DNA of 20,225 nt from Gammaproteobacteria bacterium (GCA_051008895.1 JBPCXI010000225.1:1-20225); one strand, 5' to 3'. Positions 1 to 16,473 are shown, numbered from the stretch's first letter. The notes: generated by a model from the letters alone, not told the origin. Numbers and translations are program-made.

Positions 1-1002
1 CAAATTCTTGCGCAAGCGCTGGCCGACGGTGGCGCGGCGATCGACGCCGGCGACGCGCCGGTCGCGGTGCGAAACTTCGAGCTGGCGCTCGCGGTCGATG
101 CGGTAAACGCGGAAGCGCGCGCGGGGCTCGAGCGCGCGGGCCGGCTCGACGAGGTGCTGGAACTCATGCGTGTGGCAACGGACACGGAGTCGGCCGGCGA
201 ACTGGCCGCCGCCGCGGCACTGTATGAGCAGGCGTTGGCCATCGATCAGGCATGGACGCCGGCGCGCGAGGGTTTGTCGCGAACGCGCGCGGGCGTCGCG
301 CGCCTGGGCTATGAAACGCGGATGGCGGCAGGATTCGCCGCTCTGGCGGGCGAGGAATACGATCGTGCCCGTCAGGAGTTTGCCGCCGCGCTGCGCATTC
401 GGCCCGGCAACGCCGATGCGCAGGCCGCGATCCGCCAGGTCGATGAGGAACTGCGAATGGCGGACGTCATTCGCCTGCAGGCGCGCGCGCGGATCGCGGA
501 GGCGGGAGAGGATTGGGCAACTGCGGTTGCACGTTACGAGGAGATACTGGCCAAGGATTCGGCGGTGACCTCGGCTCGAAAGAACCTCGAACGCGCCAAG
601 GCGCGCCGGCAACTCGGCGAACTTCTGGATCTCGCGATCTCGAAGGCTGACGAATTCAATGACGACCGCATCGCGCGTGAGGCGCGCGCGGTGCTCGAGC
701 GCGGCGCGGCGGTCAACGATTCCGGCCCGGTACTTGAGGATCAGACCGAACGGTTGCGGGAATTGCTGCGTGTCGCGGCGATACCGGTGCCGGTAGTTTT
801 CCAGTCTGACAATCAGACCGAGGTAGTAATATACAAAGTCGGTAGCCTCGGCATGTTTCAGTCCCGCACGCTCGACCTGAAGCCGGGCCGTTACGTTGCG
901 GTCGGCAGTCGCGAAGGCTATCGCGACGTGCGGCGGAGTTTTCAGGTGATGCCGCAGGGAACCGATGCACCGATCGTAATGAGCTGCGAGGAGCCGATTT
1001 GA
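1..1002 (+). CDS. TPR-like (tetratricopeptide-like) repeat protein, 5' partial. The reading frame is open back to position 1.
   Basis: The ORF at 67..1002 is in frame with no stop back to nt 1. The protein has repeated Ala/Leu-rich helical hairpins typical of TPR-like repeats (AxxAL..YEQAL..D..). Its stop overlaps the TTG start of the next gene (gaTTTGAg), so the two are translationally coupled. Confidence 0.55.
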   Translation, partial: QILAQALADGGAAIDAGDAPVAVRNFELALAVDAVNAEARAGLERAGRLDEVLELMRVATDTESAGELAAAAALYEQALAIDQAWTPAREGLSRTRAGVARLGYETRMAAGFAALAGEEYDRARQEFAAALRIRPGNADAQAAIRQVDEELRMADVIRLQARARIAEAGEDWATAVARYEEILAKDSAVTSARKNLERAKARRQLGELLDLAISKADEFNDDRIAREARAVLERGAAVNDSGPVLEDQTERLRELLRVAAIPVPVVFQSDNQTEVVIYKVGSLGMFQSRTLDLKPGRYVAVGSREGYRDVRRSFQVMPQGTDAPIVMSCEEPI

Positions 1003-3425
1003 GTCGCAACATCATCGTCGTCGATTCGAATGGCGAGCGTCCCGTACCGGCCGAAAAACTCCCGCTGAGCATTGGCAGTCATGTAACCGCCGACGTCAGG
1101 GTTCCCGGCCCGGTTACCGACGGCAATCGCGCGCTTATCGATCTGCTGGACGACCGCCCGTTCCTGCAAACAGCAGGAAAGGAGGGCGTGGAGGTCAACG
1201 GCGAGGCTTTGACGCGGAATCGCTGGCTCGAGGCCGGTGACGTAATAACGATTGCCGGCGTTAGCATCAGCTGCGAGTTGACTCCGGACAATGCACGCCT
1301 TGTCGTCGATTCGACGGCGCTGGAATACCCGACGTTGCCGCCGGAGATCGTGACCGGCGCGATCGAGCAGCCCGAGCCGATTGCACCGGTCCGGCCGACG
1401 TCGCCGCCGCAGCTGCGCGAGCCGCAAAGCGGCGGCAGCCAGCGCCTCAGATACATCGGGATGGGTGCGCTTGGCCTGCTGCTCGCGGTTGCGGCCTATC
1501 TGTTTACCGCTCAGGCAGTGCTGATCGAAGTCGATCCGCCCGGCGCGGAAATACGCGTTGTCGGCGGCCTGCTGTCGCCGAAGGTCGGCGGCCGTTATCT
1601 CCTGCATCGGGATACGTACCGCATCCTCATGACGGCCGACGGTTATCACCCGCTGCGCGAAGAAATAGAAATCGACGATTCGCCGAACCAGTCATTCGAA
1701 TTCTCGTTGCGCAAGTTGCCCGGCAGGCTGGCGATATCGACGGTGCCCGTCGTGCCCGCGCGATTGTCTATCGACGGTGAGGAAGTTGGGGAACTGCCCG
1801 GCGGCGAATTCATCGCGGAGCCCGGTGAGCACGAATTGACCATTGCCGCGGAGCGCTTCCTGCCGCTGGCCACTACGGTCGAGGTCGAGGGCCGCGACGT
1901 TTTGCAGCCGATCGAGCTGCAGCTCGAGCCCGGCTGGGCAGACGTGACCGTCAAGACGACGCCCGGCGACGCGGAGATATTCGTCGACGACGAGTCCGTC
2001 GGCCGGACGCCGGCGACCGTTGAAATAATGGCCGGCAACCGGACGCTCGTCATTCGCAAGGACGGCTATAAATCCGTGACGCGCGAACTCGACGTCGAGC
2101 CCGGCGTCGAGCAGGCTCTGACCGATGTGGAGCTGGCCGAGGCGGACGGGCTGCTGACGGTGATCAGCTCGCCGGTCGGCGCGGCGGTCAGCGTCGACGG
2201 CCGGTACCGGGGAACGACGCCGGTCGAAGTTGAACTCGCCCCGGGCCGTCGTTACAAAGTCATCGCATCCAAAGCGGGATTCGGGACCATCAGCCGCAAC
2301 GTAACGATGGAGTCGCGTAGCGGCCGGACGATTCGCATCGCTCTCGAGGCGCGGATCGGCATCCTGCGCGTGAGCGCCGAACCACCAGACGCTGAGCTGA
2401 TCGTCGACGGTGAATCTCGCGGCGTCGCCAACCAGGAGTTGTCGTTGCCGGCGCGACCGCACCGGATCGAGATTCGCAAAGCGGGTTACGAAACGTATAG
2501 CACCGAAATCAGCCCGCAGCCGGGGTTGCCGGAGAGTATCGAGGTGCGCTTGTTGACGCCGAAGGAAGCCGTGCTGGCCGCGACACCGAGCACGCTGCAA
2601 ACAGGCGACGGCACCAGCATGGTTCTGGTGCGTCCGGGCGGAGAGTTCGAAATGGGCGCGCCGCGCCGGGAGCAGGGTCGCAGGCCCAACGAAGCGACGC
2701 ATCGTGTGAGTCTGACGCGGCCGTTCTATATCGCGAAGACTGAGGTGACCAACTCGCAGTTTCAGGCATTCAAGCCGAAGCATACGTCCGGCGCGGAGAA
2801 GTACCGTCAGCTCGCGACCGGCAATCATCCGGCCGTGATGCTGAGTTGGGAAGAGGCCACCGGCTACTGCAACTGGCTGAGTTCCAAGGATGGCTTGCCT
2901 CCCGCCTATGTATTCGAGAACGGTGCGATCACCCTCGCCACGCCGCCGACCATCGGTTACCGGCTGCCGACTGAGGCGGAATGGGCGTGGGCCGCGCGGT
3001 TCAGCGGCGGCGGCGGGCAGCGCAAGTATCCGTGGGGTGACAAGATGCCACCCACCGAAGACGCCGGGAATTTCGCCGACAAGTCGGCACGATCCGTACT
3101 GCCGAACGTGCTGGTCAACTACAGCGACAGATTCCCGATAACGGCGCCGGTCGGCAGCTTCCGGCCTAGCCCGATTGGCCTGTACGACCTCGGCGGCAAC
3201 GTGGCCGAGTGGGTCAACGATCGCTATTCGGTGTACACGCAGTCGAAAGGCGTCGAAGTCGATCCGCTCGGACCCGACAAAGGGCAGTATCATGTTATCC
3301 GCGGCTCCGGATGGAGGCACTCGAGCATTAGTGAACTGCGTTACGCTTATCGTGATTTTGGCAATCGCGGCCGCCTCGACGTCGGCTTCAGGATCGCGCG
3401 CTATGCAGAAGCGGCCGCGGAGTAG
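999..3425 (+). CDS. Membrane protein with an N-terminal FHA-like domain, one TM helix, about 5-6 PEGA domains and a C-terminal FGE-sulfatase (SUMF1/formylglycine-generating-enzyme-like) domain.
   Basis: TTG start with a GAGGAG Shine-Dalgarno 5-6 nt upstream. N-terminus: SIGSHVTADVRV...NRALIDL...VEVNGEAL fits an FHA pattern. Hydrophobic stretch YIGMGALGLLLAVAAYLF is a TM helix. Repeated PEGA-type modules follow, e.g. VKTTPGDAEIFVDDESVGRTPATVEI...RKDGYKS. The C-terminal 260 aa carry FGE-sulfatase family motifs (YRLPTEAEWAWAAR, GNVAEWVND, IRGSGWRH, GFRIAR). Confidence 0.8.
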   Translation: MSRNIIVVDSNGERPVPAEKLPLSIGSHVTADVRVPGPVTDGNRALIDLLDDRPFLQTAGKEGVEVNGEALTRNRWLEAGDVITIAGVSISCELTPDNARLVVDSTALEYPTLPPEIVTGAIEQPEPIAPVRPTSPPQLREPQSGGSQRLRYIGMGALGLLLAVAAYLFTAQAVLIEVDPPGAEIRVVGGLLSPKVGGRYLLHRDTYRILMTADGYHPLREEIEIDDSPNQSFEFSLRKLPGRLAISTVPVVPARLSIDGEEVGELPGGEFIAEPGEHELTIAAERFLPLATTVEVEGRDVLQPIELQLEPGWADVTVKTTPGDAEIFVDDESVGRTPATVEIMAGNRTLVIRKDGYKSVTRELDVEPGVEQALTDVELAEADGLLTVISSPVGAAVSVDGRYRGTTPVEVELAPGRRYKVIASKAGFGTISRNVTMESRSGRTIRIALEARIGILRVSAEPPDAELIVDGESRGVANQELSLPARPHRIEIRKAGYETYSTEISPQPGLPESIEVRLLTPKEAVLAATPSTLQTGDGTSMVLVRPGGEFEMGAPRREQGRRPNEATHRVSLTRPFYIAKTEVTNSQFQAFKPKHTSGAEKYRQLATGNHPAVMLSWEEATGYCNWLSSKDGLPPAYVFENGAITLATPPTIGYRLPTEAEWAWAARFSGGGGQRKYPWGDKMPPTEDAGNFADKSARSVLPNVLVNYSDRFPITAPVGSFRPSPIGLYDLGGNVAEWVNDRYSVYTQSKGVEVDPLGPDKGQYHVIRGSGWRHSSISELRYAYRDFGNRGRLDVGFRIARYAEAAAE

Positions 3426-3428: not shown

Positions 3429-3710
3429 ATGGCGAGATATCTGAGTCTCGTATTTCTGCTGCTGGCGTGCCTTGCCGCGGTGGCGATTGCGCAGCAGTCC
3501 GGCGATGCGGAGACCGGCGCGGAACAGGAGGCCGGCGAGGATGCCGGGACTTCGCCGACCACGGTGATCGACGAACTGACGCAGGCGGAAATCGATGCCG
3601 AGCTGGCGAAGGCCGAGAAGGTCCTGGAGGATCCGGACGACGTGAAGGAATATATTGAAGACAAGCCGCTGCCGGCTGATTTGCCGCTGGCGATTCCGTC
3701 GGATTTTTGA
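3429..3710 (+). CDS. Small secreted, highly acidic protein (93 aa) with an N-terminal signal peptide.
   Basis: GGAG Shine-Dalgarno 6 nt upstream of the ATG. N-terminus MARYLSLVFLLLACLAAVAIA-QQ is a signal peptide with an AxA cleavage motif. The mature part is extremely Asp/Glu-rich. It sits 3 nt after the upstream stop and 17 nt before the next gene. Confidence 0.55.
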   Translation: MARYLSLVFLLLACLAAVAIAQQSGDAETGAEQEAGEDAGTSPTTVIDELTQAEIDAELAKAEKVLEDPDDVKEYIEDKPLPADLPLAIPSDF

Positions 3711-3727: not shown

Positions 3728-4525
3728 ATGAAGAGTAATTTTTCCACCGAATTCGTCTTCCAGGCGTTCTCGCTGATCATTTCGATCATCGTCGTACACG
3801 CGTTTTATGTCGGCGCCGTGCGACCGAACGCGGCCGCCGTGCTCGAGGAGGAGGCCATTCTGATCGCGGAAGATCCTGACTACGTGCCCGAACGCTCGGT
3901 GTTCGTGATCGTCAAGGACTTCGAGCAGGAGGCTTGTTTCGTATTGATGTTCTGGGCGCTCGGCATCATGGGTTACAAGGCGTGGTCCGCGAAACAGGAG
4001 CGCGATCTGCTGGACCTCGACCTCGTCCCGATCGCCGACGGCGTGCGGGTATTGCCCGATGACAGCCGGGAGTATTCCCGGCAGCTGCAGGCGCTGCCGG
4101 AAACGCAGCGGCGCTTGCTGCTGCCGCGGGCGTTGCTGGCAGCGCTGCAACGCTTCGGCGCAACGCGTAACGTGCAGGACGTATCGTCGTCGACCAATAC
4201 GATGGTCAACATGGAAGCCGAACGCCTGGAGTCGGAACTGTCGATGATTCGTTATATCGCATGGGCGATTCCGTCGATCGGGTTCATCGGCACCGTGCGC
4301 GGCATCGGTGCGGCACTCGGTCTCGCGCATCGCGCAGTCGACGGCGATATCAGCGGCGTGACCCAGAGTCTGGGCACGGCGTTCAATTCCACCTTCATCG
4401 CGCTGTTGATCAGCATCTTCCTGATGTTTCTCGTGCATCAGCTGCAGCTACTGCAGGAGAGGCTGATTTTCGACGCGGAAGCGTATGTCGATCAGAACCT
4501 GATCCGGCACATGCAGTCTGACTAG
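3728..4525 (+). CDS. MotA/TolQ/ExbB-family proton (ion) channel subunit with four predicted TM helices.
   Basis: Four hydrophobic helices with a roughly 80-aa cytoplasmic loop between TM2 and TM3, which is MotA-like topology. The C-terminal helices carry the family signature (IPSIGFIGTVRGIGAALG and LGTAFNSTFIALLISIF, including the Pro in TM3). Confidence 0.7.
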   Translation: MKSNFSTEFVFQAFSLIISIIVVHAFYVGAVRPNAAAVLEEEAILIAEDPDYVPERSVFVIVKDFEQEACFVLMFWALGIMGYKAWSAKQERDLLDLDLVPIADGVRVLPDDSREYSRQLQALPETQRRLLLPRALLAALQRFGATRNVQDVSSSTNTMVNMEAERLESELSMIRYIAWAIPSIGFIGTVRGIGAALGLAHRAVDGDISGVTQSLGTAFNSTFIALLISIFLMFLVHQLQLLQERLIFDAEAYVDQNLIRHMQSD

Positions 4526-4546: not shown

Positions 4547-5935
4547 ATGGCATTGTTTGCGATCGATCTGAACGACGCGGCAATTACCGTGGTTGGCCCG
4601 GACGGGATCGCAATGGCCGAGCCGGGGTACGCGCCTGGGTATGCGGCGACCGTCGACGGGCGATTGCTGTTCGGCATGGACGCATGGAAGGAATCCCGAT
4701 TACACCCGCGGAGCACAGCGAACGGATTCTGGAGCGACTTCTCGGAGGATCCGCTGGCACGCGAGTTTGCCGGTTGCTCAAGCTCGGCGGACCTCGCGCA
4801 CGTTCATCTCGAGGCGCTGCTCGCCGGATTACCGTCCCGACCTGCGGCGGCGCTGATCGTCGTGCCGCCGAACTGGACTACGCGGCAGCTCGGCCTGCTG
4901 CTCGGCATTGCGGAGGACATCGCGTTGCCGATACGCGGTCTCGTCGACCCGGCCGTCGCGGCGACGCGCGGCGAGTACGCCGGGCACCGATTGTTGCATA
5001 TCGACAGCGGCCTGCAGTCATCGACGATCACGCGCCTCGATCAGCACGGCCGCGTGTCGCTCGGCGAGCGGCAGGTCGTCGAGCGGGTTGGCATTATGCA
5101 GCTCGAGCGCGCATGCGTTACGTTTATCGCCGGACGTTTTCTGCAGGCGACTCGTTTCGATCCGGCGCACGATGCGCGCAGCGAACAATATCTGTACGAC
5201 AATCTGTATGCGTGGATTCGCGACGTGGACCGGCAAGAGGAGGTCGGTCTGACGATCGAATTCGGTGCGAACGAGTTCGGCACGACGATCCGCCGCGCAG
5301 ACCTCGCGGCGCGCGTCGCTGACGCATTCGAGCCGGTGGCGCGCCAGATACGCAGCTCGGTCAGCGCGGGTGAGCAAGTCGCAATTCAGGTGTCCGCGCG
5401 CCTTGCGGAGTTTCCCGGCGTGGTCGAGGCGCTGGCGAAATTGCCGCAGGCCAGCGTTTTCGTGCTGGATCAGGCAGCCGGGGCGATCGGAGCGCTGCAG
5501 CGCGAACAATGTTTCATGCCGACCGGCGGCGGGGTTGGGCTGACGACGACGTTACCGTGGGATCGAACGGTCGCTGTGGCGCAGGATTCGAGCGTACCGG
5601 CAGACTTCGAGCCCGAGATCGTCGAGCCGACCCACGTATTTTACGGCGGTAATGTTTACCGACTCACGAGCGCCCCGTTCAACATCGGGGTTGAACTTGC
5701 GGCCGGCGAATACGGTCTACAATTGGGTGCATCGCTTGGCGGCGTATCACGCAGGCACTGCAGCATTCGACGCGGTCAGAACGGCGTTGAACTCGCGGAC
5801 CATAGCCGCTTCGGCACGAAGCTGAACGGCCACGCGATCGACGGCGCCGTCGTACTGCAGGCGGGCGACATTGTTACGATCGGCAGTCCGCCGGTGCAAT
5901 TGCGCCTCGTGCGCGAAATCGGTAGCCGGGACTAG
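4547..5935 (+). CDS. Cytoplasmic protein with a C-terminal FHA domain and an uncharacterised N-terminal region of about 330 aa.
   Basis: The C-terminus (GVSRRHCSIRR...GVELADHSRFGTKLNGHAIDG...GDIVTIG) is a textbook FHA core. No TM segment is present. The N-terminus (MALFAIDLNDAAITVV) weakly resembles the first phosphate-binding motif of Hsp70/actin-fold ATPases. Confidence 0.7.
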   Translation: MALFAIDLNDAAITVVGPDGIAMAEPGYAPGYAATVDGRLLFGMDAWKESRLHPRSTANGFWSDFSEDPLAREFAGCSSSADLAHVHLEALLAGLPSRPAAALIVVPPNWTTRQLGLLLGIAEDIALPIRGLVDPAVAATRGEYAGHRLLHIDSGLQSSTITRLDQHGRVSLGERQVVERVGIMQLERACVTFIAGRFLQATRFDPAHDARSEQYLYDNLYAWIRDVDRQEEVGLTIEFGANEFGTTIRRADLAARVADAFEPVARQIRSSVSAGEQVAIQVSARLAEFPGVVEALAKLPQASVFVLDQAAGAIGALQREQCFMPTGGGVGLTTTLPWDRTVAVAQDSSVPADFEPEIVEPTHVFYGGNVYRLTSAPFNIGVELAAGEYGLQLGASLGGVSRRHCSIRRGQNGVELADHSRFGTKLNGHAIDGAVVLQAGDIVTIGSPPVQLRLVREIGSRD

Positions 5936-5939: not shown

Positions 5940-7037
5940 ATGGCGCGAAAGAGATTTAACGTATTCAACCTGTCTTTCCTCGACGTGATGGCGTGTGGCC
6001 TCGGCGCGATTGTGCTGTTCTACATGATCATCAACGCGCAGGTGTCGCGGCGTGCCGATCAGGCCAATGAAACGTTGCTGGCCGAGTCGACGATGCTTGA
6101 AGAAGAGGTGCTGGACGGGCGCAAGGATCTGATACGCGTGCGCACCACACTCGAGGCCAAGGAAGAGGAGCGGCTCGCAAGGGATACCGAGGCGGATCGT
6201 TTACGCGAGGAGCTCGAGCGACTGCTGGCCGAGCTGGCCGCGTCCGAGAAAAGCACGGTCGCCCAGACCGAGAGTATCGAACAACTGGAGGCTGACATCG
6301 AGCGCCTCGAAGACGCCAAGCGGCGCCTGTCGGCCGAGGCCGCGGACCGCGCGCCGGAATCCGGCCGACGGGTCCGTACGTTTGTCGGCGACGGCAACCG
6401 TCAGTACCTGACGGGCATGAGGATGGGCGGCAGCCGCGTACTGTTCCTCGTCGACGCATCGACGAGCATGCTCGGCCGTTCCTACGTAAACGTCGTGCGC
6501 TTCCGTAATATGCAGCCGTCGCGCAAACGCCTTGCGCCGAAATGGCAGCAGGTCGTAAACAGCGTCGACTGGCTCACCACTCAGCTTTCGCCGGGCATCA
6601 AATTTCAGCTCTACGTCTTCAACGAGCAAGCCAATAGTGTGGTCGACGGTAGCGACGGCAAGTGGATTGACGTGAAAGACGGGAGCGAGCTCAGTGAAGC
6701 AGTTGATGCACTGCGACTCGTCACGCCGGAGAAGGGTACTAGCCTGATCAATGCGTTCTCTCGCATCAGCGAACTCGACCCGCTGCCCGACAACATCTAT
6801 TTGTTGACCGACGGGCTGCCGACGCAGGGCAAGGTGCCGCCGAATGAGGTCGTGCGGGTCAAGGAGAGTCGTCGCATCGACTATTTCGAGAAGGCCGTGC
6901 GGCAATTGCCGCGGAAGGTGCCGGTCAATATTTTGTTGTATCCAATGGTTGGCGATCCCGCCGCGGCCGGGTTGTTCTGGCAGCTGGCGATTGCGAGTAA
7001 TGGTTCGCTGCTGACGCCGTCGCGTGACTGGCCGTAG
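5940..7037 (+). CDS. ExbD/TolR/MotB-like single-pass membrane protein with a long coiled coil and a C-terminal von Willebrand factor A (VWA, MIDAS) domain.
   Basis: The start is ATG 5940, which is preferred over the longer 5871 ORF. The N-terminus MARKRFNVFNLSFLDVMACGLGAIVLFYMI matches the ExbD/TolR TM helix with its conserved Asp (compare ExbD PFIDVMLVLL). The Glu/Leu/Arg-rich segment after the TM helix is a heptad-like coiled coil. The VWA domain has a DASTS MIDAS motif (LFLVDASTSM) and a downstream TDG motif (IYLLTDGLPT). Confidence 0.7.
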   Translation: MARKRFNVFNLSFLDVMACGLGAIVLFYMIINAQVSRRADQANETLLAESTMLEEEVLDGRKDLIRVRTTLEAKEEERLARDTEADRLREELERLLAELAASEKSTVAQTESIEQLEADIERLEDAKRRLSAEAADRAPESGRRVRTFVGDGNRQYLTGMRMGGSRVLFLVDASTSMLGRSYVNVVRFRNMQPSRKRLAPKWQQVVNSVDWLTTQLSPGIKFQLYVFNEQANSVVDGSDGKWIDVKDGSELSEAVDALRLVTPEKGTSLINAFSRISELDPLPDNIYLLTDGLPTQGKVPPNEVVRVKESRRIDYFEKAVRQLPRKVPVNILLYPMVGDPAAAGLFWQLAIASNGSLLTPSRDWP

Positions 7038-7061
7038 ACGCCGAACGATGGTCGCATTGCT

Positions 7062-8057
7062 ATGAAGAAGAAAAATCGCGAAACAGAGACCTTCAGCCTG
7101 TCGTTTCTCGACGCGGTGACCTGCGCATTCGGGGCCGTCATTCTGCTGCTGGTGTTGACGAAAATCTATGAGCCGCAGACGATCGAGCGCAGCAAGCAGG
7201 AGCTCGCCGGGCTGATCGCCGCGTTGCAGAAGGAGTTGTTCGATCTGCGCGGCGAGACGGCCGTGCTCAATCGCGAGATGGTTACCGTCGACGATCAGCT
7301 GGCGAAGTCGCGCCAGGCGGTCGCGACGCTGCGCGGCGACGTGTCCGATGTTCGCGGCCAGTTCGAGGCGTCCCAGGACAGCGCCGACGTCGATAGCGAG
7401 CAGCGCGGCGAACTGGTTGCTGCGCGGCAAATGTTGACCGAGGAAATGAAACGCCTGCTCGCGAATTATCAACCCGCTGACAACGAAACGACCGTTGGCG
7501 GCATTCCGGTCGACAGTGAGTACATCATTTTCGTCATCGATACGTCCGGCAGCATGTTCCAGGGCCCTTGGCGGTTGGTACTCAAGAAAATCGAGGAGAC
7601 GCTGTCGGTCTACCCGGAGGTCAAGGGCATTCAGGTGCTGAACGACGAAGGACGGTATATGTTCTCGTCGTACGCCGGCAAATGGATCCCCGACTCGCCG
7701 ACCGCGCGTCGGAATATCATCAGCCGCCTGGCCAACTGGAATCCGTACAGCGATTCGAGTCCGGTCGAGGGGATATCCGAGGCGATAAACACGTTCTACG
7801 AGCCGGGCAAACCGATCAGTATTTTCGTATTCGGGGATGACTTCCCGCGCGGGCAGGTCGAGGCGGTTGCCCGCTTCATCGACAGAGTCAACAAAACAAA
7901 CGCATCAGGCGATCGGCTGGTCCGCATTCACGGGGTTGGATTTCCGACACAGCTGGCGGGCGGGCGCACGCGCAATGCGCAGCAGTTTGCGAACCTGATG
8001 AGGACGCTGTGCGAGCGCAACGGCGGATCGTTCGTCGCACTGACGTATTTGAACTAG
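7062..8057 (+). CDS. Paralogous ExbD/TolR-like TM helix, coiled coil and VWA-domain protein.
   Basis: The N-terminus FSLSFLDAVTCAFGAVILLLVL has the same ExbD-type TM Asp motif. A coiled coil follows, then a VWA domain with a DxSxS MIDAS motif (IIFVIDTSGSM). The architecture is the same as the upstream gene. Confidence 0.7.
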   Translation: MKKKNRETETFSLSFLDAVTCAFGAVILLLVLTKIYEPQTIERSKQELAGLIAALQKELFDLRGETAVLNREMVTVDDQLAKSRQAVATLRGDVSDVRGQFEASQDSADVDSEQRGELVAARQMLTEEMKRLLANYQPADNETTVGGIPVDSEYIIFVIDTSGSMFQGPWRLVLKKIEETLSVYPEVKGIQVLNDEGRYMFSSYAGKWIPDSPTARRNIISRLANWNPYSDSSPVEGISEAINTFYEPGKPISIFVFGDDFPRGQVEAVARFIDRVNKTNASGDRLVRIHGVGFPTQLAGGRTRNAQQFANLMRTLCERNGGSFVALTYLN

Positions 8058-8470: not shown

Positions 8471-10273
8471 CTAGAACATAGCTGACGGACCGACTTCGCC
8501 GTCGTCGTCGTCGTCCTCACGACGATTCTTGATGAAATCGCCGGTGATCATCTTGTCGTATGCCATGCCGGGCCCGACCATTGGAAAGACCATGGCGTCG
8601 GGATCGATGATCACCTCGAGAAACGCAGGTCCGTCGAACTCGATGAATTCCTTGACGACCTTTTCCACGTCGTTCTTTTGCTCCAGCCGCACCGCGAAAT
8701 CAAAACCGTCAGCCTGCGCAGCCTTGATGAAGTCTTTGCGATGCAGCGACTTGTCGGTCGCCGAAAAACGGCCTTTGTAATACAGCTTCTGCCACTGTCT
8801 GACCATCCCGTCGCCGTAGTTGTTGAGCACGACGACCTTGACGGGCAGGTCGTAGGTGGTGACCGTCTCGAGTTCGCCGAGATTCATCCGGATGCTCGCA
8901 TCGCCGTCGATATCGATGACCAGCCGGTCCGGACGCGCAAACTGCGCGCCAATCGCCGCTGGCAGGCCGAATCCCATCGTACCCATGCTGCCCGATGTCA
9001 GCCACAGTCGCGGTTCGCGAAAATCGAACCCCTGGGCTGCCCACATCTGGTGCTGGCCGACGCCGGTCGTGATGATTGCGTCGCCCTGCGTATGCTTGTT
9101 CAGTTCCTCAATGACATAGTCGGGCTGGATAAGCGCGCTGTCACGGTCGTAGTTTTGCGCGTACGTCGATTTCAGCGCCGCGATTTCCTCGTGCCAGATC
9201 GGCAGCCGAGTCTTGATATCGTGCCGGTCCCCATACGCGATCAGCGCCTGCAGATCGCGATTCAGGATGCCGACGTGATACCAGTCGACATTCTTGACCT
9301 TGCCGATCTCCGACGGGTCGACGTCGAAATGCGCGAGTCGCTTCGCGCTCGGCGCAAACTTCTCGGGCACTCCCGCGACGCGATCGTCGAAACGCGCGCC
9401 GACAGCGATCAGGAAATCGCAGTCGTCGACCGCGTAGTTCGCAAAAGCAGCGCCGTGCATGCCGAGCATGCGTAACGACAGGTCGCTGGTCGTATCCTGC
9501 GCGCCAATGCCCATCAGCGTCGTCGTAATCGGTATCCCGAAGCGATCCGCAAACGTTCTCAGCGAAGCCGAGGAATCGCTGTTGACGACGCCGCCCCCCG
9601 CATAAATCAGCGGGCGCTCCGAACGTGCCAGCATGTCGAAGAATACCTTTGCCGTGCCGGCGGTCAGAACGTTTTCTTCGACCGCGCGCATGCGCTGGCG
9701 ATAGCCGACGATCGGTAGCAAGCCGGTGCCCTCGAATTCGCCGACCCAGTTCTGCACGTCTTTCGGCACGTCTACGACGACCGGTCCGGGTCTGCCGGTG
9801 CGGGCAATTTCGAACGCGGTACGCACGGTGGCCTCGAGTTTGTGCGGGTCGGTCACGAGGAACACATGTTTCGCGACCGCCGAGCCCATAACCGCTGAAA
9901 TCGGGGCCTCCTGGAATGCGTCCGTGCCGATCGCTGCCGTCGGGACCTGGCCGCAGATCACGACGATCGGTATCGAGTCGGCCATGCAGTCGCGGACCGG
10001 CGTAACGGTATTGGTCGCGCCGGGACCCGACGTCACCATGACGACGCCGACCTCGCCGCTCGCGCGAGCGTATCCGGACGCCATGAAGCCGGCCCCCTGC
10101 TCGTTGGCCGGCACGATCAACGGCATTGGCACGCCGCCGTTGTCGTCGCGGTTGTCGTCGTTGTAACGAAAGACTGCGTCGTAGGTCGGGAGGATCGCGC
10201 CGCCACTGTAGCCGAAAATCGCGTCGACGCCTTCGTCGGCGAGTACCTGTACGATCATTTCCGCGCCGGTCAT
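8471..10273 (-). CDS. ilvI: Acetolactate synthase (acetohydroxy-acid synthase) large catalytic subunit. It is ThDP-dependent and carries an unusual C-terminal poly-Asp tail.
   Basis: ALS-specific motifs are present: FGYSGGAILPTYDAV, GPGATN, RMLGMHG, GVGQHQMWAAQ and SGSMGTMGFGLPAAIGA. The start is chosen at MTGAEMIVQ (10273). The longer ORF allows ATG 10330 or 10501. The C-terminus ...NRREDDDDDGEVGPSAMF is atypical for this family. Confidence 0.85.
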   Translation of the reverse strand: MTGAEMIVQVLADEGVDAIFGYSGGAILPTYDAVFRYNDDNRDDNGGVPMPLIVPANEQGAGFMASGYARASGEVGVVMVTSGPGATNTVTPVRDCMADSIPIVVICGQVPTAAIGTDAFQEAPISAVMGSAVAKHVFLVTDPHKLEATVRTAFEIARTGRPGPVVVDVPKDVQNWVGEFEGTGLLPIVGYRQRMRAVEENVLTAGTAKVFFDMLARSERPLIYAGGGVVNSDSSASLRTFADRFGIPITTTLMGIGAQDTTSDLSLRMLGMHGAAFANYAVDDCDFLIAVGARFDDRVAGVPEKFAPSAKRLAHFDVDPSEIGKVKNVDWYHVGILNRDLQALIAYGDRHDIKTRLPIWHEEIAALKSTYAQNYDRDSALIQPDYVIEELNKHTQGDAIITTGVGQHQMWAAQGFDFREPRLWLTSGSMGTMGFGLPAAIGAQFARPDRLVIDIDGDASIRMNLGELETVTTYDLPVKVVVLNNYGDGMVRQWQKLYYKGRFSATDKSLHRKDFIKAAQADGFDFAVRLEQKNDVEKVVKEFIEFDGPAFLEVIIDPDAMVFPMVGPGMAYDKMITGDFIKNRREDDDDDGEVGPSAMF

Positions 10274-10492
10274 GCGCTTGCCGGCACGCGGGTGTGCGGT
10301 CGTTTCGATTGTCGGTGACGGACTTGCCATAACGTTGGAAGGCGCTTTGTGCGGGTCTATGAGGATCGAGTTGTTGTGTTTTCGCGAGTTTCGAACAAAT
10401 GAGGGTCCATTGCAATAGCAAACATTCTGAGCGAGTATTGCCAATCTTCTAAATCTTAAGGCTTTTTTCGGCACCTCCGGCGAAAACCAGCG

Positions 10493-10993
10493 ATGCGACA
10501 CGTGATTTCCATACTGCTGCAGAACGAAGCCGGCGCGCTCGCGAGGGTCGCGTCGTTGTTCTCGACGCGCGGCTACAACATCGAATCGCTCAGCGTCGCG
10601 CCGACCGAGGACCCGCAGGTCTCGCGATTGACGCTGGTTTCGATCGGGTCCGATCAGGTCATTTCACAGATTACGCAGCAGCTGTTCAAACTCGTCGATG
10701 TCGTAAATATTGCCGATATGACACTTGGCGATCATATAGAGCGCGAGCTGCTGCTGCTCAAGCTGCGCGTAGACACGGAGCACGGCGATAAGGTCCGGGA
10801 CATGGCGCGCGAGCTTAAGGCCCGTGTGCTCGACGACGCTTTGCGGAACTACACCGTGGAAGTCACCGGCAGCAGCGGCCAGCTCGATGAATTCATCGAT
10901 CGCGTCGGCAACTGCGGCGATATCCTGACGGTCGTGCGCTCGGGGCCGCTGTCGCTCGCGCGGGGCCAGCAGGTGTTGAGCGCGACAATCTGA
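10493..10993 (+). CDS. ilvH: Acetolactate synthase small (regulatory, ACT-domain) subunit.
   Basis: 166 aa. The N-terminus MRHVISILLQNEAGALARVASLFSTRGYNIESLSVAPTEDPQVSRLT closely matches the IlvH/IlvN ACT-domain signature. Confidence 0.85.
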   Translation: MRHVISILLQNEAGALARVASLFSTRGYNIESLSVAPTEDPQVSRLTLVSIGSDQVISQITQQLFKLVDVVNIADMTLGDHIERELLLLKLRVDTEHGDKVRDMARELKARVLDDALRNYTVEVTGSSGQLDEFIDRVGNCGDILTVVRSGPLSLARGQQVLSATI

Positions 10994-11010: not shown

Positions 11011-12159
11011 ATGAACTCTGTTAGCGATCACGAGATCACGCGACCCGCGTTGGCCGACGCCGGCCGCGTGGTCATCAAGATAGGCTCGTCGCTGCTGGTC
11101 GATGCGGAGACGGGCCGTCTGAACCGTCGCTGGCTCGAATCCCTCGCCGACGAGGTTGTGCGCCTGCGCGAACGGGGCCAGCAGGTACTGATCGTGTCGT
11201 CCGGCGCGATCGCGCTGGGGCGTCGCTACCTCGGCCTGTCGCCGGCGCAATCGCGACTCGAGGATCACCAGGCCGCCGCCGCCGCCGGCCAGGTGCTGCT
11301 CGCGCATGCGTACCAGGACCTGCTGGACGATCGCGGCGTTCGCATCGCGCAGATTCTGCTGACGCTGGACGATACCGAGGATCGCCGTCGGTATCTGAAC
11401 GCGCGCAGTACGCTGGCGACGCTGCTGAAGCTCGGCGTCGTGCCGGTGATTAACGAGAACGATACCGTCGCGACGCAGGAGATTCGCTACGGCGACAACG
11501 ATCGTCTCGGCGCCCGCGTCGCGGAAATGGTCAGTGCGGACTGCCTCGTGCTGCTGTCCGACGTCGACGGGCTGTATAGCAGCGACCCGAGTTCGGATAC
11601 GGACGCCGAGCTGATCGCCGAGGTGCGTGAGATTACCGCCGATATCGAGGCGCGGGCCGGTGCGTCCAGTACGCCGTTCGGATCCGGCGGCATGGTCACC
11701 AAGCTGGCCGCGGCCCGCATCTGCATGGCCGCAGGCTGTGCGACGCTAATTGCGAACGGCCATCGGCTCGAGCCGATGCGGGCGATCGAAGCTGGCGCGC
11801 CGTGCACCTGGTTCATCCCGCGCAAGTCCCCGCGCGCGGCGCGCAAGCAATGGATAGCGGGCAGCCTGACGTCGCGTGGCAAGCTCATGATCGACGCGGG
11901 TGCGGAACGTGCACTCGCGAGTGGCAGTAGCCTGCTGCCGGTCGGCGTCGTCGGCGTCGAAGGCGATTTCGAGCGTGGCGATGCGATTTCCGTCGTCAGC
12001 AGTGATGGCCGCGATATTGCGCGCGGTCTTGCCGCGTATTCGAGTGCGGATGCTCGCACTATCCAGGGCCGACGCAGCGAGGAGATCGATTCGCTGCTTG
12101 GTTACGGCGGGCGAGATGAGATAATACATCGCGACGATCTGGTCCTGATGGATGGATGA
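11011..12159 (+). CDS. proB: Glutamate 5-kinase with a C-terminal PUA domain.
   Basis: [12 protein letters not shown]...[12 protein letters not shown]...VINEND are amino-acid-kinase family motifs. The C-terminal PUA-like segment begins [13 protein letters not shown]. The gene starts 17 nt after ilvH. Confidence 0.9.
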
Positions 12160-13447
12160 CATGAGCGTGACGAGCGAGCAAATGAATACGGACACCGCCG
12201 CAGCGATGGAGCGCATCGGGCGGCAGGCCCGTGCCGCCGCGAGTGAGCTCGCGAAGGCCGGGGCGGGCGAGAAGGTTGATGCGTTGCACGCGGCGGCCGC
12301 GACAATTCGTGAGCGTGCCGCCGCGATCTTGCAGGCGAACGCGCTCGACATGGAGACGGCCCGCGCGCGCAGTATCCCGGCGGCGATGCTCGACCGCTTG
12401 CTATTGAACGAAGAACGCGTCGAGGCGATGGCTGTCGGCGTGGAGCAGGTCGCCGCGCTCGACGATCCGATTGGCACGACCATTGCGGACTGGGACCGGC
12501 CGAACGGTCTGCGTATCCAGCGCGTGCGTGTGCCGCTCGGCGTTATCGGCATCATTGACGAGAGTCGGCCGAACTTGACGGCCGACGCCGGCGCGCTGTG
12601 CCTGAAGTCCGGGAACGCGGTGATCCTGCGCGGCGGCTCGGAGAGTTTTAATTCGAGCACGGCGATTCAGGCGTGTTTCGAGCATGCGCTGACGGAGACG
12701 GGACTGCCGGCGGCCGCGATTCAGATTGTGCCGACCCGGAGTCGCGACGCGGTGGGTATGATGCTGGCCGGGCTGGACGGCTGTGTCGACGTCATCGTTC
12801 CGCGCGGCGGCAAGAACCTGATCGCACGCGTGCAGCAGGATGCGCGCGTCCCGGTCATCGGCCATCTCGAGGGCCTCTGTCACGTCTACGTGCATCCTTC
12901 CGCCAATGTGAAAATGGCGACGGACATCGTGCTGAACGCAAAGATGCGTCGCACCGGTATTTGCGGTGCGGCGGAGTCGCTGTTGATCGATCGCGACGCG
13001 CTCGGTACGCACCTGCCCGCGATTGTTGATGCACTGGCGGCCGCTGGTTGCGAGCTGCGCGGCGACGAAGATGCGCGCGCGATCGATGCACGCATCGTTC
13101 CCGCAACGGACGAGGACTGGACGACGGAATACCTCGACGCGATCCTGTCCATTCGCACGATCGCCGGCATCGATGCGGCGATCGCGCACATCGAGACCCA
13201 CGGCTCCGGGCACACGGATGCGATCGTTGCCGAGGATCGCAATGTCGTCGAGCGATTCTTCAGTCAGCTCGACAGCGCAATACTGATGCACAACGCATCG
13301 ACGCAGTTCGCCGACGGCGGCGAATTCGGCATGGGCGCGGAGATCGGTATCGCAACGGGCCGGATCCACGCGCGTGGCCCGGTCGGCGCGGAGCAGCTGA
13401 CGAGCTTCAAATACGTCGTCCGCGGTAGCGGTCAGACCCGCCCGTAA
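12152..13447 (+). CDS. proA: Gamma-glutamyl phosphate reductase (glutamate-5-semialdehyde dehydrogenase).
   Basis: ALDH-superfamily ProA with conserved full-length architecture. It overlaps the proB stop by 8 nt. An alternative start is ATG 12161, immediately after the proB stop. Confidence 0.9.
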
Positions 13448-15049
13448 TTGGTGGCCGATACCAATCCAAGCCACGATTTTGACCTGATTGTCATCGGTGG
13501 CGGCGTCAACGGCGCCGGCATCGCCCGTGACGCGGCCCTGCGCGGCCTGCGCGTCTGTCTGCTGGAGCAGGCGGATCTGTGCCACGGCACGAGCCGCTGG
13601 TCCAGTCGCCTGATCCACGGCGGTTTGCGGTATCTGGAGCACTTCGAGTTGTCGCTCGTGTACGAATCGCTGCACGAGAGGGAGGCACTGCTCAAGACCG
13701 CGCCGCACCTGGTCCGCTCGCTCGAATTGCTCATCCCGATTTACCGCGGTGGGCGCCGGGGCAGGTTTGTCATCGCGTGCGGCATGTGGCTCTACGACCT
13801 GCTGTCGATCGGCAAGTCGGTGCCGCGGCACCGGATGCTCGATGCCGAGGAGGCGCTGGTCGCGATGCCGTTGCTCAATCCTGCGGCACTGACAGGTGCG
13901 GCCTGCTACTACGACGCGCAGGTTGTATTCGCGGAGCGCCTGATCGTCGAGAACGCGCTCGCCGCGCGCGACGCCGGCGCATCAATCCGCACCTACAGCC
14001 GCGTCGACCGAATACTGATCGAGGACCGCCGCGTGCGCGGCGTTCGCTACACGGACTTGCGTACCGATCGGCAACATGATGTCACCGCGACCGTGGTCGT
14101 CAACGCGGCCGGTCCGTGGGTCGATTCGGTTCTCGACAAGCTCGACGCCGACGTGCCCGACTTCATGGGCGGGACGAAGGGTACCCATATCGTCGTGCCG
14201 AAGTTTCCGGGCCACCCGCGGATTGCGGTTTACTCGGAGGCGGCGTCCGACGGGCGGCCCTTTTTCATCATCCCGTGGAACGGGATGTTGCTGATCGGGA
14301 CCACGGATATTCGCCACGAAGGTAGTCCGGCGGACGCGTCGGCGGATGCAGGCGAAATTCGTTACCTGCTCGATGAGACGAATCGCGTGTTTCCCGGCGC
14401 CAATCTCGACGAATCCAAGATTCACTATCACTATTGCGGCGTGCGACCGCTGCCGAAAAAGCCGAAGAAATCTACAGGCGCAATTACGCGCAAGCACATC
14501 ATCCGCCATCACCGGCGCGTCGCGAATGGCCTGTACTCCGTGATCGGGGGCAAGCTAACGACCTACCGCAATCTCGCCGAGATCGTGACGGATCGCGCCG
14601 TTCGCCGTATCGGCAGGCGCGCCGCCGCATGCGTGACGAAGAAGGCGCCGCTTCCCGGCGCAGCCGGCGATCACGGCGCGACCGTCGATGCACTCGACGC
14701 CTGCGATGCGATCGCGCCCGAGGCTCGCGCACACCTGCTGCAGGTATACGGCTCCCGCGCGACCGCGATAAAGAAACTGATTGATGAAAACCGGGAGCTC
14801 GGCGCACGCATCTGCCCGCACAGTCACGCGATTGCCGCCGAGGTTGTGTTCTGTTTCCGCGAAGAACTCGCGACAACAATAGCCGATGTCATGTTGCGCC
14901 GAACGATGATCGGTTTATCCGAGGACCTCGGCCGGGCCGCGCTGCCACGTGCAATCGAGGTCGCGAGAAAGTATCTCGGTTGGAGTCAGCAACGCGCCGA
15001 CGAAGAAGAGCGGCGATACCTGCGCGAGATTGATCGACTGACGCATTGA
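13448..15049 (+). CDS. glpD: FAD-dependent glycerol-3-phosphate dehydrogenase.
   Basis: The N-terminal FAD-binding motif DLIVIGGGVNGAGIARDAALRGL and the downstream motif SSRLIHGGLRYLE are hallmarks of GlpD/GlpA. It has a non-ATG start (TTG/GTG) directly after the proA stop. Confidence 0.8.
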   Translation: MVADTNPSHDFDLIVIGGGVNGAGIARDAALRGLRVCLLEQADLCHGTSRWSSRLIHGGLRYLEHFELSLVYESLHEREALLKTAPHLVRSLELLIPIYRGGRRGRFVIACGMWLYDLLSIGKSVPRHRMLDAEEALVAMPLLNPAALTGAACYYDAQVVFAERLIVENALAARDAGASIRTYSRVDRILIEDRRVRGVRYTDLRTDRQHDVTATVVVNAAGPWVDSVLDKLDADVPDFMGGTKGTHIVVPKFPGHPRIAVYSEAASDGRPFFIIPWNGMLLIGTTDIRHEGSPADASADAGEIRYLLDETNRVFPGANLDESKIHYHYCGVRPLPKKPKKSTGAITRKHIIRHHRRVANGLYSVIGGKLTTYRNLAEIVTDRAVRRIGRRAAACVTKKAPLPGAAGDHGATVDALDACDAIAPEARAHLLQVYGSRATAIKKLIDENRELGARICPHSHAIAAEVVFCFREELATTIADVMLRRTMIGLSEDLGRAALPRAIEVARKYLGWSQQRADEEERRYLREIDRLTH

Positions 15050-15112: not shown

Positions 15113-15297
15113 GCCCTATGAAAACTTACCGACAAAATTTGATTCACGATTACGCGCCGACGTGCGCGACGAACGATCGTGAAGTTTTTGATCGCGGCCT
15201 GAATTGGCCTCGCGATCGCGGTCTCGCTCGGCCTGCGGAAAGTGCAGGTGCCGGCGGCGCCACAGGAGATTTGATTAGATAGCCTTGCGAACAATGT

Positions 15298-15329
15298 GTC
15301 GGAAGGCTGTCCGCATGCAGCCTTCCGAC
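15298..15329. repeat. Perfect 12-bp inverted repeat (hairpin) with an 8-nt loop.
   Basis: GTCGGAAGGCTG-tccgcatg-CAGCCTTCCGAC. The repeat is an exact reverse complement. Confidence 0.7.
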
Positions 15330-15340
15330 CAGGGAACGAG

Positions 15341-15377
15341 AAGCCCCGGTTGGCGTATGCAACCGGGGCTTTTTCTT
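15341..15377 (+). terminator. Rho-independent terminator.
   Basis: GC-rich 10-12 bp stem (AAGCCCCGGTTG / CAACCGGGGCTT) with a 7-nt loop, followed by TTTTTCTT. Confidence 0.6.
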
Positions 15378-15533
15378 GCCTGCGAGAAATGGCCCCGGGA
15401 TTCGTCGTTGGGCGAATCTCGTTCTTTAACAATGCGGATTACCTGATAGGGAGGCCATGGGGTCAGACCCCGCCCGTCGACTTGCTGTAGTTCAGCAACC
15501 GAATGGGGTCTGACTCCGAGCCCTCCCGACTTT

Positions 15534-15610
15534 GCCGGCCTGGCTTTAATGGCAAGAAGCGGCTGCCTGGTAAGCAGCAGAAAGAGGTTCGATTCCTCTG
15601 ACCGGCACCA
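15534..15610 (+). tRNA. tRNA-Thr (anticodon GGT).
   Basis: Cloverleaf read by eye. Acceptor GCCGGCC/GACCGGC has one C-A mismatch. D-stem GCTT/AAGC. Anticodon stem GCTGC/GCAGC with loop CTGGTAA. T-arm AGAGG-TTCGATT-CCTCT. CCA is encoded. Confidence 0.75.
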
Positions 15611-15615
15611 CACAT

Positions 15616-15690
15616 GCACTGGTAGCTCAGACGGCAGAGCGCCTGGTTGAAGCCCAGGAAACGGAGTCTCGAAACCTCCCCGGTGCGCCA
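15616..15690 (+). tRNA. tRNA-Phe (anticodon GAA), atypical.
   Basis: Acceptor GCACTGG/CCGGTGC includes a G-U pair. D-arm GCTC-AGACGGCA-GAGC. Anticodon stem CCTGG/CCAGG with loop TTGAAGC, so position 37 is G. T-arm GGAGT-CTCGAAA-CCTCC has U53-C61 and C54, which is non-canonical. CCA is encoded. Confidence 0.55.
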
Positions 15691-15696
15691 GATTAT

Positions 15697-15771: not shown

Positions 15772-15777
15772 ATCATC

Positions 15778-16024: not shown

Positions 16025-16030
16025 AACATC

Positions 16031-16107: not shown

Positions 16108-16123
16108 ATTTTCAATAGTCACT

Positions 16124-16467: not shown

Positions 16468-16473
16468 GACAAT

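Follow-up and report, generated by a model that had tools for sequence, protein, structure and literature searches.

Flagella, TonB uptake, Tol-Pal envelope maintenance, gliding and type IX secretion all draw their power from proton-driven 5:2 motors, and each output that came to be understood has opened a field. Here we asked whether two neighbouring genes on a 20,225-nt stretch of DNA from a Gammaproteobacteria bacterium (GCA_051008895.1 JBPCXI010000225.1:1-20225, hereafter the window) encode the B-type subunits of one more motor of this kind. The two genes, B1 and B2, fill positions 5940-8057 of the + strand, and a first-pass annotation had described their products as paralogous ExbD/TolR-type transmembrane (TM) helices, each fused to a coiled coil and to a VWA domain with a metal ion-dependent adhesion site (MIDAS), that might act as heteromeric stator subunits. 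On balance we think that B1 and B2 serve as B-type axle subunits in a 5:2 proton-driven motor, together with the product of the gene at 3728-4525, and that the two probably form a heterodimer.

B1 and B2 are paralogues of the same architecture

The open reading frame (ORF) of B1 extends from the ATG at 5940 to the stop codon at 7037, and that of B2 from the ATG at 7062 to the stop codon at 8057. A longer version of B1, starting at a TTG at position 5871, was ruled out because every orthologue begins with MAR[KR]. The resulting N-termini, MARKRFNVFNLSFLDVMACGLGAIVLFYMII for B1 and MKKKNRETETFSLSFLDAVTCAFGAVILLLVLT for B2, are exactly those quoted by the first-pass annotation and carry the aspartates D15 and D17, respectively. 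The parts of the two genes are the following:

5940..7037, + strand: B1, with a basic N-terminal tail, TM helix with D15, coiled coil (residues ~36-135), linker, VWA/MIDAS domain (~160-360) and C-terminal DWP
5964..6038, + strand: B1 TM helix, residues 9-33 (Asp15 codon GAC, 5982-5984)
6045..6344, + strand: B1 coiled-coil stalk, residues 36-135 (heptad periodicity; helix in the AlphaFold2 (AF2) model)
6453..6467, + strand: B1 MIDAS, D172-A-S174-T-S176 (completed by T267 and D291)
7062..8057, + strand: B2, with a basic/acidic N-terminal tail, TM helix with D17, coiled coil (~38-140) and VWA/MIDAS domain (~150-328)
7092..7166, + strand: B2 TM helix, residues 11-35 (Asp17 codon GAC, 7110-7112)
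7539..7553, + strand: B2 MIDAS, D160-T-S162-G-S164 (completed by S232 and D259)

The paralogy of the two proteins was evident both by BLASTP (E 5e-10, 21% identity) and by comparison of their orthologue profiles with hhalign (99.6%, E 6e-24), whose alignment of 315 columns begins at the TM helix and runs through the whole VWA domain. The orthologue set comprised 51 B1 and 47 B2 sequences from 51 genome loci (named L005, L028, L050 and so on). Sequence, orthologue alignments and the AF2 model of B1 bore out the proposed order of aspartate-bearing TM helix, coiled coil and MIDAS-bearing VWA domain. Thousands of close relatives of B1 occur in metagenomes, nearly all of them 360-367 amino acids (aa) long, and an exhaustive search among representatives clustered at 50% identity returned 1323 clusters at E <= 1e-3 and 262 at E <= 1e-30. 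The relatives with names are from uncultured Gammaproteobacteria, with labels including Chromatiales-type, Steroidobacteraceae and 'Rariloculaceae'; a few carry the labels Rhodospirillaceae, Myxococcales, Spirochaetales, Verrucomicrobia or Planctomycetota.

The TM helix carries a conserved aspartate near its predicted cytoplasmic end

Across the B1 and B2 orthologues, the motif [LMV]-[SA]-F-[LI]-D-x-x-x-C-G-[FL]-G-A is almost fixed. In B1, F13 and D15 are invariant and S12, L14, G20 and G22 are at least 90% conserved. As the first-pass annotation would have it, the TM aspartate is conserved: it was found in all 51 B1 and in 46 of the 47 B2 orthologues, with an alanine at this position in the B2 of L046, and also in 87 of the 88 distant sequences that matched the motif pattern among 150 diverse representatives, clustered at 50% identity, that were examined. 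Representatives that did not match the motif were mostly gene calls begun at an internal Met just past it.

The best 19-residue windows of the helices have a mean hydropathy of 2.27 in B1 and 2.33 in B2. Net charge of the N-terminal flank averages +3.4 (B1) and +2.9 (B2), and that of the 15 residues past the helix -1.0 and -1.6; the N flank is richer in Lys plus Arg than the C flank in 45 of 51 B1 and in all 47 B2 orthologues. From this combination of a basic N flank and a net negative C flank, the positive-inside rule predicts for both proteins an N-in/C-out topology, in agreement with the first-pass annotation. The TM aspartate lies one to two turns from the helix end that would be cytoplasmic, as do ExbD D25, TolR D23 and MotB D32 (numbering checked on the E. 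coli genes), and among the TM segments examined in the gene cluster described below an acidic residue is present in those of B1 and B2 alone.

The cytoplasmic tail of B2 also holds Thr/Ser residues 7 and 9 positions before the TM aspartate (T-E-T-F-S-L, residues 8-13, 7083-7100). They are present in most gammaproteobacterial orthologues and unconserved in Myxococcales, Spirochaetales and some other lineages. The stretch T10-F-S-L is compatible with the preference of FHA domains for a Leu three positions after phosphothreonine.

The TM region shows no significant similarity to ExbD, TolR or MotB

The first-pass annotation held that both N-termini follow the ExbD/TolR TM signature closely. Pfam and NCBIfam returned no ExbD, TolR or MotB match for full-length B1 and B2 or for seven N-terminal fragments, and profiles of B1, of B2 or of their N-termini alone, when run against PDB sequences, retrieved coiled coils or nothing, with no ExbD, TolR or MotB chain among them. 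With hmmsearch --max, the N-terminal profile scored -0.4 bits with E. coli TolR, -2.4 bits with E. coli ExbD and -1.2 bits with E. coli MotB; its best match outside the family (L045, 143 aa) was a spurious ORF. Alignment of the N-terminal profile by hhalign gave 0.3% (P 0.18) with MotB and 0.7% (P 0.08) with an ExbD/TolR alignment, the latter being a weak test since that template was very shallow (E. coli ExbD and TolR and Serratia ExbD only), because no such genes were found in the 51 loci. The optimum of these alignments places the aspartate on ExbD D25 (FNLSFLDVM on NVTPFIDVM) and on MotB D32 (NLSFLDVM on KIAYADFM). Despite this, Pfam, profile searches and hhalign lend the proposed signature no statistical support, and the profile-profile comparison with ExbD, which the first-pass annotation had itself named as a way to decide against its reading, came out insignificant. 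With no demonstrable homology of the TM region, the assignment of B1 and B2 as B subunits is therefore made by context and analogy.

The remainder of the two proteins also departs from the known B subunits. The periplasmic alpha/beta domain of ExbD/TolR is not in B1 or B2, whose predicted periplasmic part consists of the coiled coil and the VWA domain, and Pfam detected in neither of them the OmpA-like peptidoglycan-binding domain that, together with a plug, is a feature of MotB and PomB.

A MotA/TolQ/ExbB-family gene is linked to the pair

Two genes precede B1 on the same strand:

3728..4525, + strand: MotA/TolQ/ExbB-family A-type subunit gene (Pfam MotA_ExbB)
4547..5935, + strand: gene for a cytoplasmic 462-aa protein with an Hsp70 nucleotide-binding domain (NBD)-like (ASKHA) fold and a C-terminal FHA domain (AF2, Foldseek, Pfam)

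The product of the first gene matched Pfam MotA_ExbB at 1e-13 (51.6 bits versus a cut-off of 22.9). Its residues P182, G185, G188, T189 and T222 align with P138, G141, G144, T145 and T178 of E. coli TolQ; T189 and T222 correspond to ExbB T148 and T181, the P-x-x-G-x-x-G-T motif is kept, and both pore threonines are retained in 48 of 48 orthologues. An additional hydrophobic segment lies near residues 67-87 of the protein, and the alignment and the flanking charges suggest a four-TM, MotA-like layout. A MotA_ExbB-family gene is linked to B1/B2 in 48 loci, including L045, L046 and L048, where it lies just after B2, relocated yet still adjacent. Of the statement that two B-type subunits stand next to a single A-type subunit, the presence of an A-type gene in the operon was upheld and the adjacency was not, as 4547-5935 intervenes.

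No match to ExbD, TolR or MotB was obtained in the cluster genes scanned (the window genes and the upstream or flanking ORFs of L005, L050, L049 and L055), and phmmer with E. coli TolR and ExbD as queries found nothing in the 51 loci. We also considered an anti-phage system, Zorya or others, and discarded it: the ZorA matches given by PADLOC were only marginal and owed to the MotA domain (E 0.0014), B1 and B2 matched none of its models, and the genomic context is housekeeping.

A stalk of conserved length whose charge pattern suggests pairing of B1 with B2

Family-averaged hydrophobicity has a period of 3.50 in residues 36-135 of B1 (z 5.6 relative to shuffles) and in residues 38-140 of B2 (z 6.0), and one uninterrupted heptad register spans the whole coiled-coil segment of each protein. 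The AF2 model of B1 contains a continuous helix from residue 9 to 104 and another from 110 to 135. The coiled coil put forward by the first-pass annotation is thus borne out by the periodicity of both proteins and by the modelled helix of B1. The sequence of the stalk is poorly conserved; what is held, in 45 loci, is the distance between the TM aspartate and the motif before the first VWA strand, which amounts to 134-139 residues up to the RQYLTG motif of B1 and to 125-129 residues up to the equivalent motif of B2. Counted from the aspartate to the end of the coiled coil, B1 and B2 have equally many residues, and with respect to the aspartate their heptad registers agree. An ideal helix of ~100 residues would measure ~15 nm (arithmetic at 0.15 nm per residue).

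We then counted favourable and unfavourable charges between heptad positions g and e', a count that assumes a parallel, in-register dimer. Means over 47 loci were +2.8 for B1:B2, -2.2 for B1:B1 and +1.5 for B2:B2. The hetero pair scored above the mean of both homo pairs in 40 of the 47 loci and above every register-shifted control. For the pair encoded in the window the values were +5, -2 and +2, respectively (permutation p ~0.02). This charge pairing suggests a B1:B2 heterodimer, short of proof because the orthologues are not independent.

Both VWA domains have a complete MIDAS

The MIDAS of B1 is made up of D172-x-S174-x-S176, T267 (within G-T267-S-L) and D291 of the L-L-T-D-G motif, and that of B2 of D160-x-S162-x-S164, S232 and D259. 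All these residues are invariant in the orthologue alignments except T267, which is mostly Thr and sometimes Ser. The second-sphere residues that the first-pass annotation had left to be checked, T267 and D291 in B1 and S232 and D259 in B2, are therefore in place, and by sequence the MIDAS of both proteins is complete. Pfam VWA models scored below the cut-off on the window proteins (18.5 and 13.8 bits versus 27) and above it on some orthologues (e.g. P0265, 33.8 bits). A Pfam VWA_2 match in B1 covers residues 167-292 and ends at the TDG motif, the AF2 model gives B1 a Rossmann-like VWA fold, and hhalign aligns the VWA domain of B2 with that of B1.

Three other features of B1 were observed around its VWA domain. 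The sequence GNRQYLTGMRMGG (6387-6428, residues 150-163) is invariant and immediately precedes the first VWA strand; a basic insertion follows the DxSxS motif; and the protein ends with an invariant Asp-Trp-Pro-COOH (7026-7037), which becomes x-W-P in distant relatives. GNRQYLTGMRMGG and the C-terminal Asp-Trp-Pro could be docking motifs.

B1 and B2 belong to a conserved gene cluster

Upstream of the A-type gene, the window contains three more genes of the same row:

1..1002, + strand: 3' end of a receptor Ser/Thr kinase gene (frame open from base 1; the gene is cut by the contig end)
999..3425, + strand: gene for a protein with FHA domain, TM segment, four PEGA repeats and a domain like the formylglycine-generating enzyme (FGE)-sulfatase family (Pfam, TM segment)
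3429..3710, + strand: gene for a small acidic secreted protein (signal-peptide-like hydrophobic N-terminus, residues 4-22)

From 1-1002 through B2 the row is tightly packed, with intergenic gaps of 3 to 30 nt. A scan of the operon for promoters and terminators returned 0 promoter-like sites and terminator-like sites at chance level.

By tblastn of the window proteins against the 51 genome loci we identified a conserved cluster of about nine genes, in the order lipoprotein, second lipoprotein, kinase-TPR, FHA-TM-PEGA-FGE-like protein, small acidic secreted protein, MotA-like protein, 462-aa protein, B1 and B2. B1 and B2 occur together in ~48 of the 51 loci, and the linkage of the genes for MotA, the ASKHA-FHA protein, B1 and B2 was found in metagenome-assembled genomes (MAGs) of Gammaproteobacteria, Myxococcales, Spirochaetales, Verrucomicrobia and Planctomycetota. 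A Verrucomicrobia contig shows the order PEGA protein ... MotA_ExbB, FHA protein (homologue of the 462-aa protein), B1, B2, and a Planctomycetota contig the order MotA_ExbB, homologue of the 462-aa protein, B1 and the start of B2. Because the same set is present in these two contigs, the genes for MotA, ASKHA-FHA, B1 and B2 are an old core of the cluster.

The kinase gene is conserved upstream in most loci, and its kinase domain lies outside the window. Its orthologues are receptor Ser/Thr kinases of 730-820 aa with a TM segment, a periplasmic TPR region and a C-terminal beta domain; full-length examples were found in L005 (2722-5055; Pkinase E 7e-34 plus TPR; TM segment at residues 319-337) and in L050 (Pkinase E 3e-21 plus TPR). 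The cluster contains no PP2C gene. The 808-aa product of 999-3425, whose gene is conserved in the loci that cover its region, matched Pfam FGE-sulfatase (5.5e-48), PEGA (6.3e-46, four stretches) and, in an N-terminal and presumably cytoplasmic fragment, FHA (23.5 bits versus a cut-off of 20.7); its TM segment comprises residues 153-171, which would place the PEGA/FGE part in the periplasm. Its score with the NCBIfam GldK/PorK model was partial (102.7 bits versus a cut-off of 350). The FGE-like domain, the C-terminal ~270 residues, more probably serves for binding than for catalysis, since it matches GldK/PorK, PvdO and EgtB only partially and, by comparison with the human FGE motif, appears not to have the Cys pair that marks the catalytic formylglycine-generating enzymes. 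The small acidic secreted protein is poorly conserved, with a tblastn match in some loci only and an equivalent small acidic ORF in L028 and L049.

The AF2 model of the 462-aa protein has a mean predicted local distance difference test (pLDDT) score of 92.3, its best Foldseek match in the PDB has an E of 5e-17, and all 50 matches listed are Hsp70-family NBDs. Its FHA domain (Pfam 4.8e-10, residues 399-446) has invariant S401, R402, H404, S420, R421, T424 and N427, among which are the canonical Arg, Ser, His and Asn. The phosphate loops have the consensus LNDAA and D-x-S-L-H in place of the usual Gly-rich Hsp70 motifs, and for this reason the protein may be a non-canonical or inactive ATPase.

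Two lipoprotein genes with lipoboxes precede the kinase gene outside the window (L005 575-2606; L050 535-3143), and no Pfam family matched their products. One of these combines a long, acidic stretch of low complexity, rich in Gly/Ser, with a conserved motif at the C-terminus (...ETDP..RE..WEEYR.H.GI); the other, of ~410 aa, has a hydrophobic Gly/Ala-rich segment near its C-terminus.

Some loci depart from this order. In two related MAGs, L028 (2994-11131) and L031, an acyl-CoA-dehydrogenase-like gene follows B1 where B2 was expected, and exopolyphosphatase-like and polyphosphate-kinase-like (ppx/ppk) genes lie on the opposite strand between the genes for the small secreted protein and MotA; the identities of all these genes were read from translations, and the absence of B2 concerns the place beside B1 only. 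In several other lineages, B2 is directly followed by a gene whose product combines signal peptide, glycine zipper and coiled coil with an OmpA peptidoglycan-binding domain:

L029, ~12207-12980: OmpA protein after B2
L030, ~12197-12940: OmpA protein after B2
L036, ~11497-12240: OmpA protein after B2
L041, ~13031-14170: OmpA protein after B2
L049, 12244-13005: OmpA protein after B2

We rejected this protein as the 'real' MotB: it has a signal peptide and a Gly-zipper, it has no Asp-bearing TM helix, and it does not occur in the lineage of the window.

A proposed motor and its alternatives

In the motor that we favour, the product of 3728-4525 would form a pentameric A subunit, with B1 and B2 as the two axle subunits inserted in its pore. 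Each B subunit would have its short basic tail in the cytoplasm and a single TM helix whose protonatable aspartate (D15, D17) would lie level with the ring of conserved threonines of the pentamer (T189, T222). The two TM helices would run on into a parallel, in-register and probably heterodimeric coiled coil of ~100 residues (~15 nm), and a flexible linker would set the two MIDAS-bearing VWA heads near the peptidoglycan or the outer membrane. Proton flow through A5B2 would turn or tension the stalk and so do work on an acidic ligand gripped by the MIDAS heads, for which the cluster offers as candidates the periplasmic PEGA/FGE-like protein, the two lipoproteins and the small acidic secreted protein. 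The receptor Ser/Thr kinase with its periplasmic TPR and the two cytoplasmic FHA proteins, one of them Hsp70-NBD-like, are constant members of the cluster and may exert phospho-control over assembly or activity. Taken as a whole, a phospho-regulated trans-envelope machine, made of a MotA-like pentamer, a B1:B2 stalk of fixed length, MIDAS heads acting on an envelope partner and a kinase/FHA switch of assembly or activity, and thereby a fourth or fifth proton-powered envelope machine beside flagellar stators, Ton, Tol-Pal and the type IX secretion/gliding motors, is a tentative picture, more doubtful than the motor assignment at its centre.

Several observations weigh against the motor. The TM region has no significant sequence or profile similarity to ExbD, TolR or MotB; L049 lacks a MotA gene in 17.7 kb, the sole absence among the long loci; the B2 orthologue of L046 has Ala in place of the TM aspartate; and the topology is drawn from charge statistics only. 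For the heterodimer, the g-e' statistic is modest and comes from phylogenetically non-independent orthologues, and L028 and L031, having no B2 beside B1, indicate that pairing may not be obligatory.

Could B1 and B2 instead be membrane-anchored periplasmic VWA receptors or scaffolds of kinase/FHA signalling? Their TM helices would then serve to anchor and dimerise, the aspartate would be a helix contact, and the MotA-like protein would have a different partner or would energise something else. [quoted passage not shown] We nevertheless find it unlikely, as the cluster has no other candidate B subunit yet contains a MotA_ExbB protein with an intact Thr ring, and the MotA gene stays adjacent even after rearrangement. 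Moreover, a single-pass helix that keeps a charged Asp at its cytoplasmic end, in both paralogues and across phyla, is what a 5:2 motor requires and is rare in plain anchors. Still harder to credit is an N-out topology in which the VWA domains would be phospho-dependent partners of the FHA proteins, with no motor role. Archaeal ArnA (FHA)/ArnB (VWA) and bacterial TerY-P (VWA, PP2C, kinase) are cytoplasmic phospho-modules of this type. A module like these was discarded here because the predicted topology puts the VWA domains outside the cytoplasm, the positive-inside rule favouring N-in in 45 of 51 B1 and 47 of 47 B2, and because PP2C is missing from the cluster; in addition, the conserved ~15-nm coiled coil fits a stalk that spans the periplasm, and to our knowledge all known partners of the MotA family are N-in. 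We consider this arrangement highly improbable.

A different alternative keeps the motor and changes its composition: B1 and B2 might each homodimerise and give two kinds of motor, A5:B1_2 and A5:B2_2, that share one A subunit like alternative stators. ExbD, TolR and MotB are homodimers, B1 lacks an adjacent B2 in L028 and L031, and the B2:B2 charge count is mildly favourable. Set against these points are the one-to-one, adjacent occurrence of B1 and B2 in nearly all loci, distant phyla included, the identical residue number from aspartate to coiled-coil end with identical heptad register, and the charge counts, which make B1:B1 net repulsive and the hetero pair the best. Separate homodimers therefore seem to us improbable, somewhat more so than the receptor or scaffold, and a motor with one B1 and one B2 remains the arrangement that we prefer.

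Other features of the window

The gene 3' of B2 encodes a pterin-4a-carbinolamine dehydratase and is followed by housekeeping genes; the genes that flank the cluster are ilvIH-like, proBA-like and glpD-like genes and tRNAs. At 8471-10993, a thiamine pyrophosphate (TPP)-enzyme gene on the - strand, with the look of an acetolactate synthase large subunit, and a small-subunit (ACT/ALS_ss_C) gene on the + strand are divergent and overlap by a few bases, an arrangement unusual for ilvIH. The 676-aa TPP-enzyme ORF probably starts further downstream, because its TPP_N domain does not begin until residue 77. Twelve tRNA genes stand head to tail at 15534-16935 (+ strand), namely those for Thr, Asn, Asp, Glu, Pro, His, Lys, Val, Arg, Ile and Leu and one irregular call with a 2-nt anticodon. 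This array is overlapped by a 165-aa ORF on the - strand (15275-15772) that has no Pfam match and is probably no real gene.

Comparison with known systems

The putative motor shares with ExbB-ExbD and TolQ-TolR a MotA_ExbB A subunit with the pore Thr pair and an N-in single-pass partner with an Asp near its cytoplasmic end. It differs in that there are two different B paralogues, which have neither the ExbD/TolR periplasmic domain nor significant TM similarity, in that the B subunit itself carries stalk and head by fusion, with no TonB- or TolA-like transducer seen apart from it, and in the extra hydrophobic segment of the A subunit. The analogy that the first-pass annotation drew with the Myxococcus gliding motor AglR-AglQ/AglS applies to the gene content, one A-type gene with two different B-type genes. 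It fails for the proteins themselves: AglQ and AglS are TolR/ExbD-like, whereas B1 and B2 carry a coiled coil and a VWA domain in place of a TolR/ExbD-like domain, and no Glt genes accompany them.

Comparable in layout are GldL-GldM and PorL-PorM of the type IX secretion system (T9SS, with its GldK/PorK ring), which are likewise 5:2 motors whose B-type subunit is itself the long periplasmic stalk that reaches an envelope partner. That system also includes a protein of FGE-sulfatase fold, to which the 808-aa protein described here is a partial match at the level of GldK. On the other hand, B1 and B2 are not homologous to GldM and their stalk is a coiled coil instead of GldM-type Ig-like domains; the FGE-like domain is tied to the inner membrane through FHA, TM and PEGA regions, its GldK/PorK score is 102.7 against a required 350, and no other T9SS genes are present. 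TagR, a component of the T6SS pathway mentioned above, may also have an FGE-like fold, which would extend the likeness to the FGE-like domain described here, although we found no supporting text. In that pathway TagR engages the periplasmic VWA domain of the kinase PpkA, and the signal passes to an FHA protein (PMC3224232, PMC6082577). PpkA-PppA-Fha1-TagQRST thus has in common with the cluster a receptor Ser/Thr kinase, an FHA effector, a periplasmic VWA with a periplasmic partner and an outer-membrane lipoprotein; here, by contrast, the VWA is on putative motor subunits, the periplasmic part of the kinase is TPR, and neither a PP2C phosphatase nor a T6SS gene is present. The NTP-dependent vWA conflict systems of Kaur et al. 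2020 (PMC7159879) were set aside, as no MotA is mentioned there and the architectures differ.

The closest known counterpart is a family described in one paragraph and Fig. 4c-d of 'Origin and Evolution of Bacterial Periplasmic Force Transducers' (Mol Biol Evol 2025;42:msaf138, PMC12204202). The trans-pore helix (TPH)-vWA family, the second vWA family of that study, was seeded from Idiomarina loihiensis, lies next to tolQ-like genes and is 'predominantly found in heterologous pairs' in Proteobacteria and Verrucomicrobia; its TolR/ExbD-like trans-pore helix has a conserved Asp that AlphaFold 3 (AF3) puts at the conserved Thr ring of the pentamer, and disordered regions are described near the vWA domain (PMC12204202). 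The locus studied here has the same trans-pore-like helix with conserved Asp, C-terminal vWA, paired genes, TolQ/MotA-like linkage without tolR or exbD, and distribution over Proteobacteria and Verrucomicrobia. By architecture and linkage, B1 and B2 are a further member of this class. The proposal that such vWA pairs are motor partners has been published independently, with AF3 models (PMC12204202), and the core of the motor idea already existed in silico in 2025.

What the present locus adds is the conserved set of partners, the fixed length of the stalk and the heterodimer signal. The vWA section of PMC12204202 does not mention a length-conserved coiled-coil stalk, and neither that section nor the other literature searched describes the kinase, FHA, Hsp70-like, PEGA/FGE and lipoprotein partners. 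The value of the locus lies in being a well-resolved member with the full partner set, not a first sighting, of a family of at least 1323 clusters at 50% identity. In the motor as proposed, a force-transmitting stalk and a metal-dependent adhesion head would be fused straight onto the pore subunit, the two paralogues would probably form an asymmetric axle, and the whole would be wired to a eukaryote-like kinase/FHA switch and an Hsp70-fold protein. The mechanistic reading is plausible on the basis of context, not homology, and, if true, it would offer a compact and widespread system in which to see how rotation or tension of a B dimer is converted into work at a defined ligand and how phosphorylation gates it.

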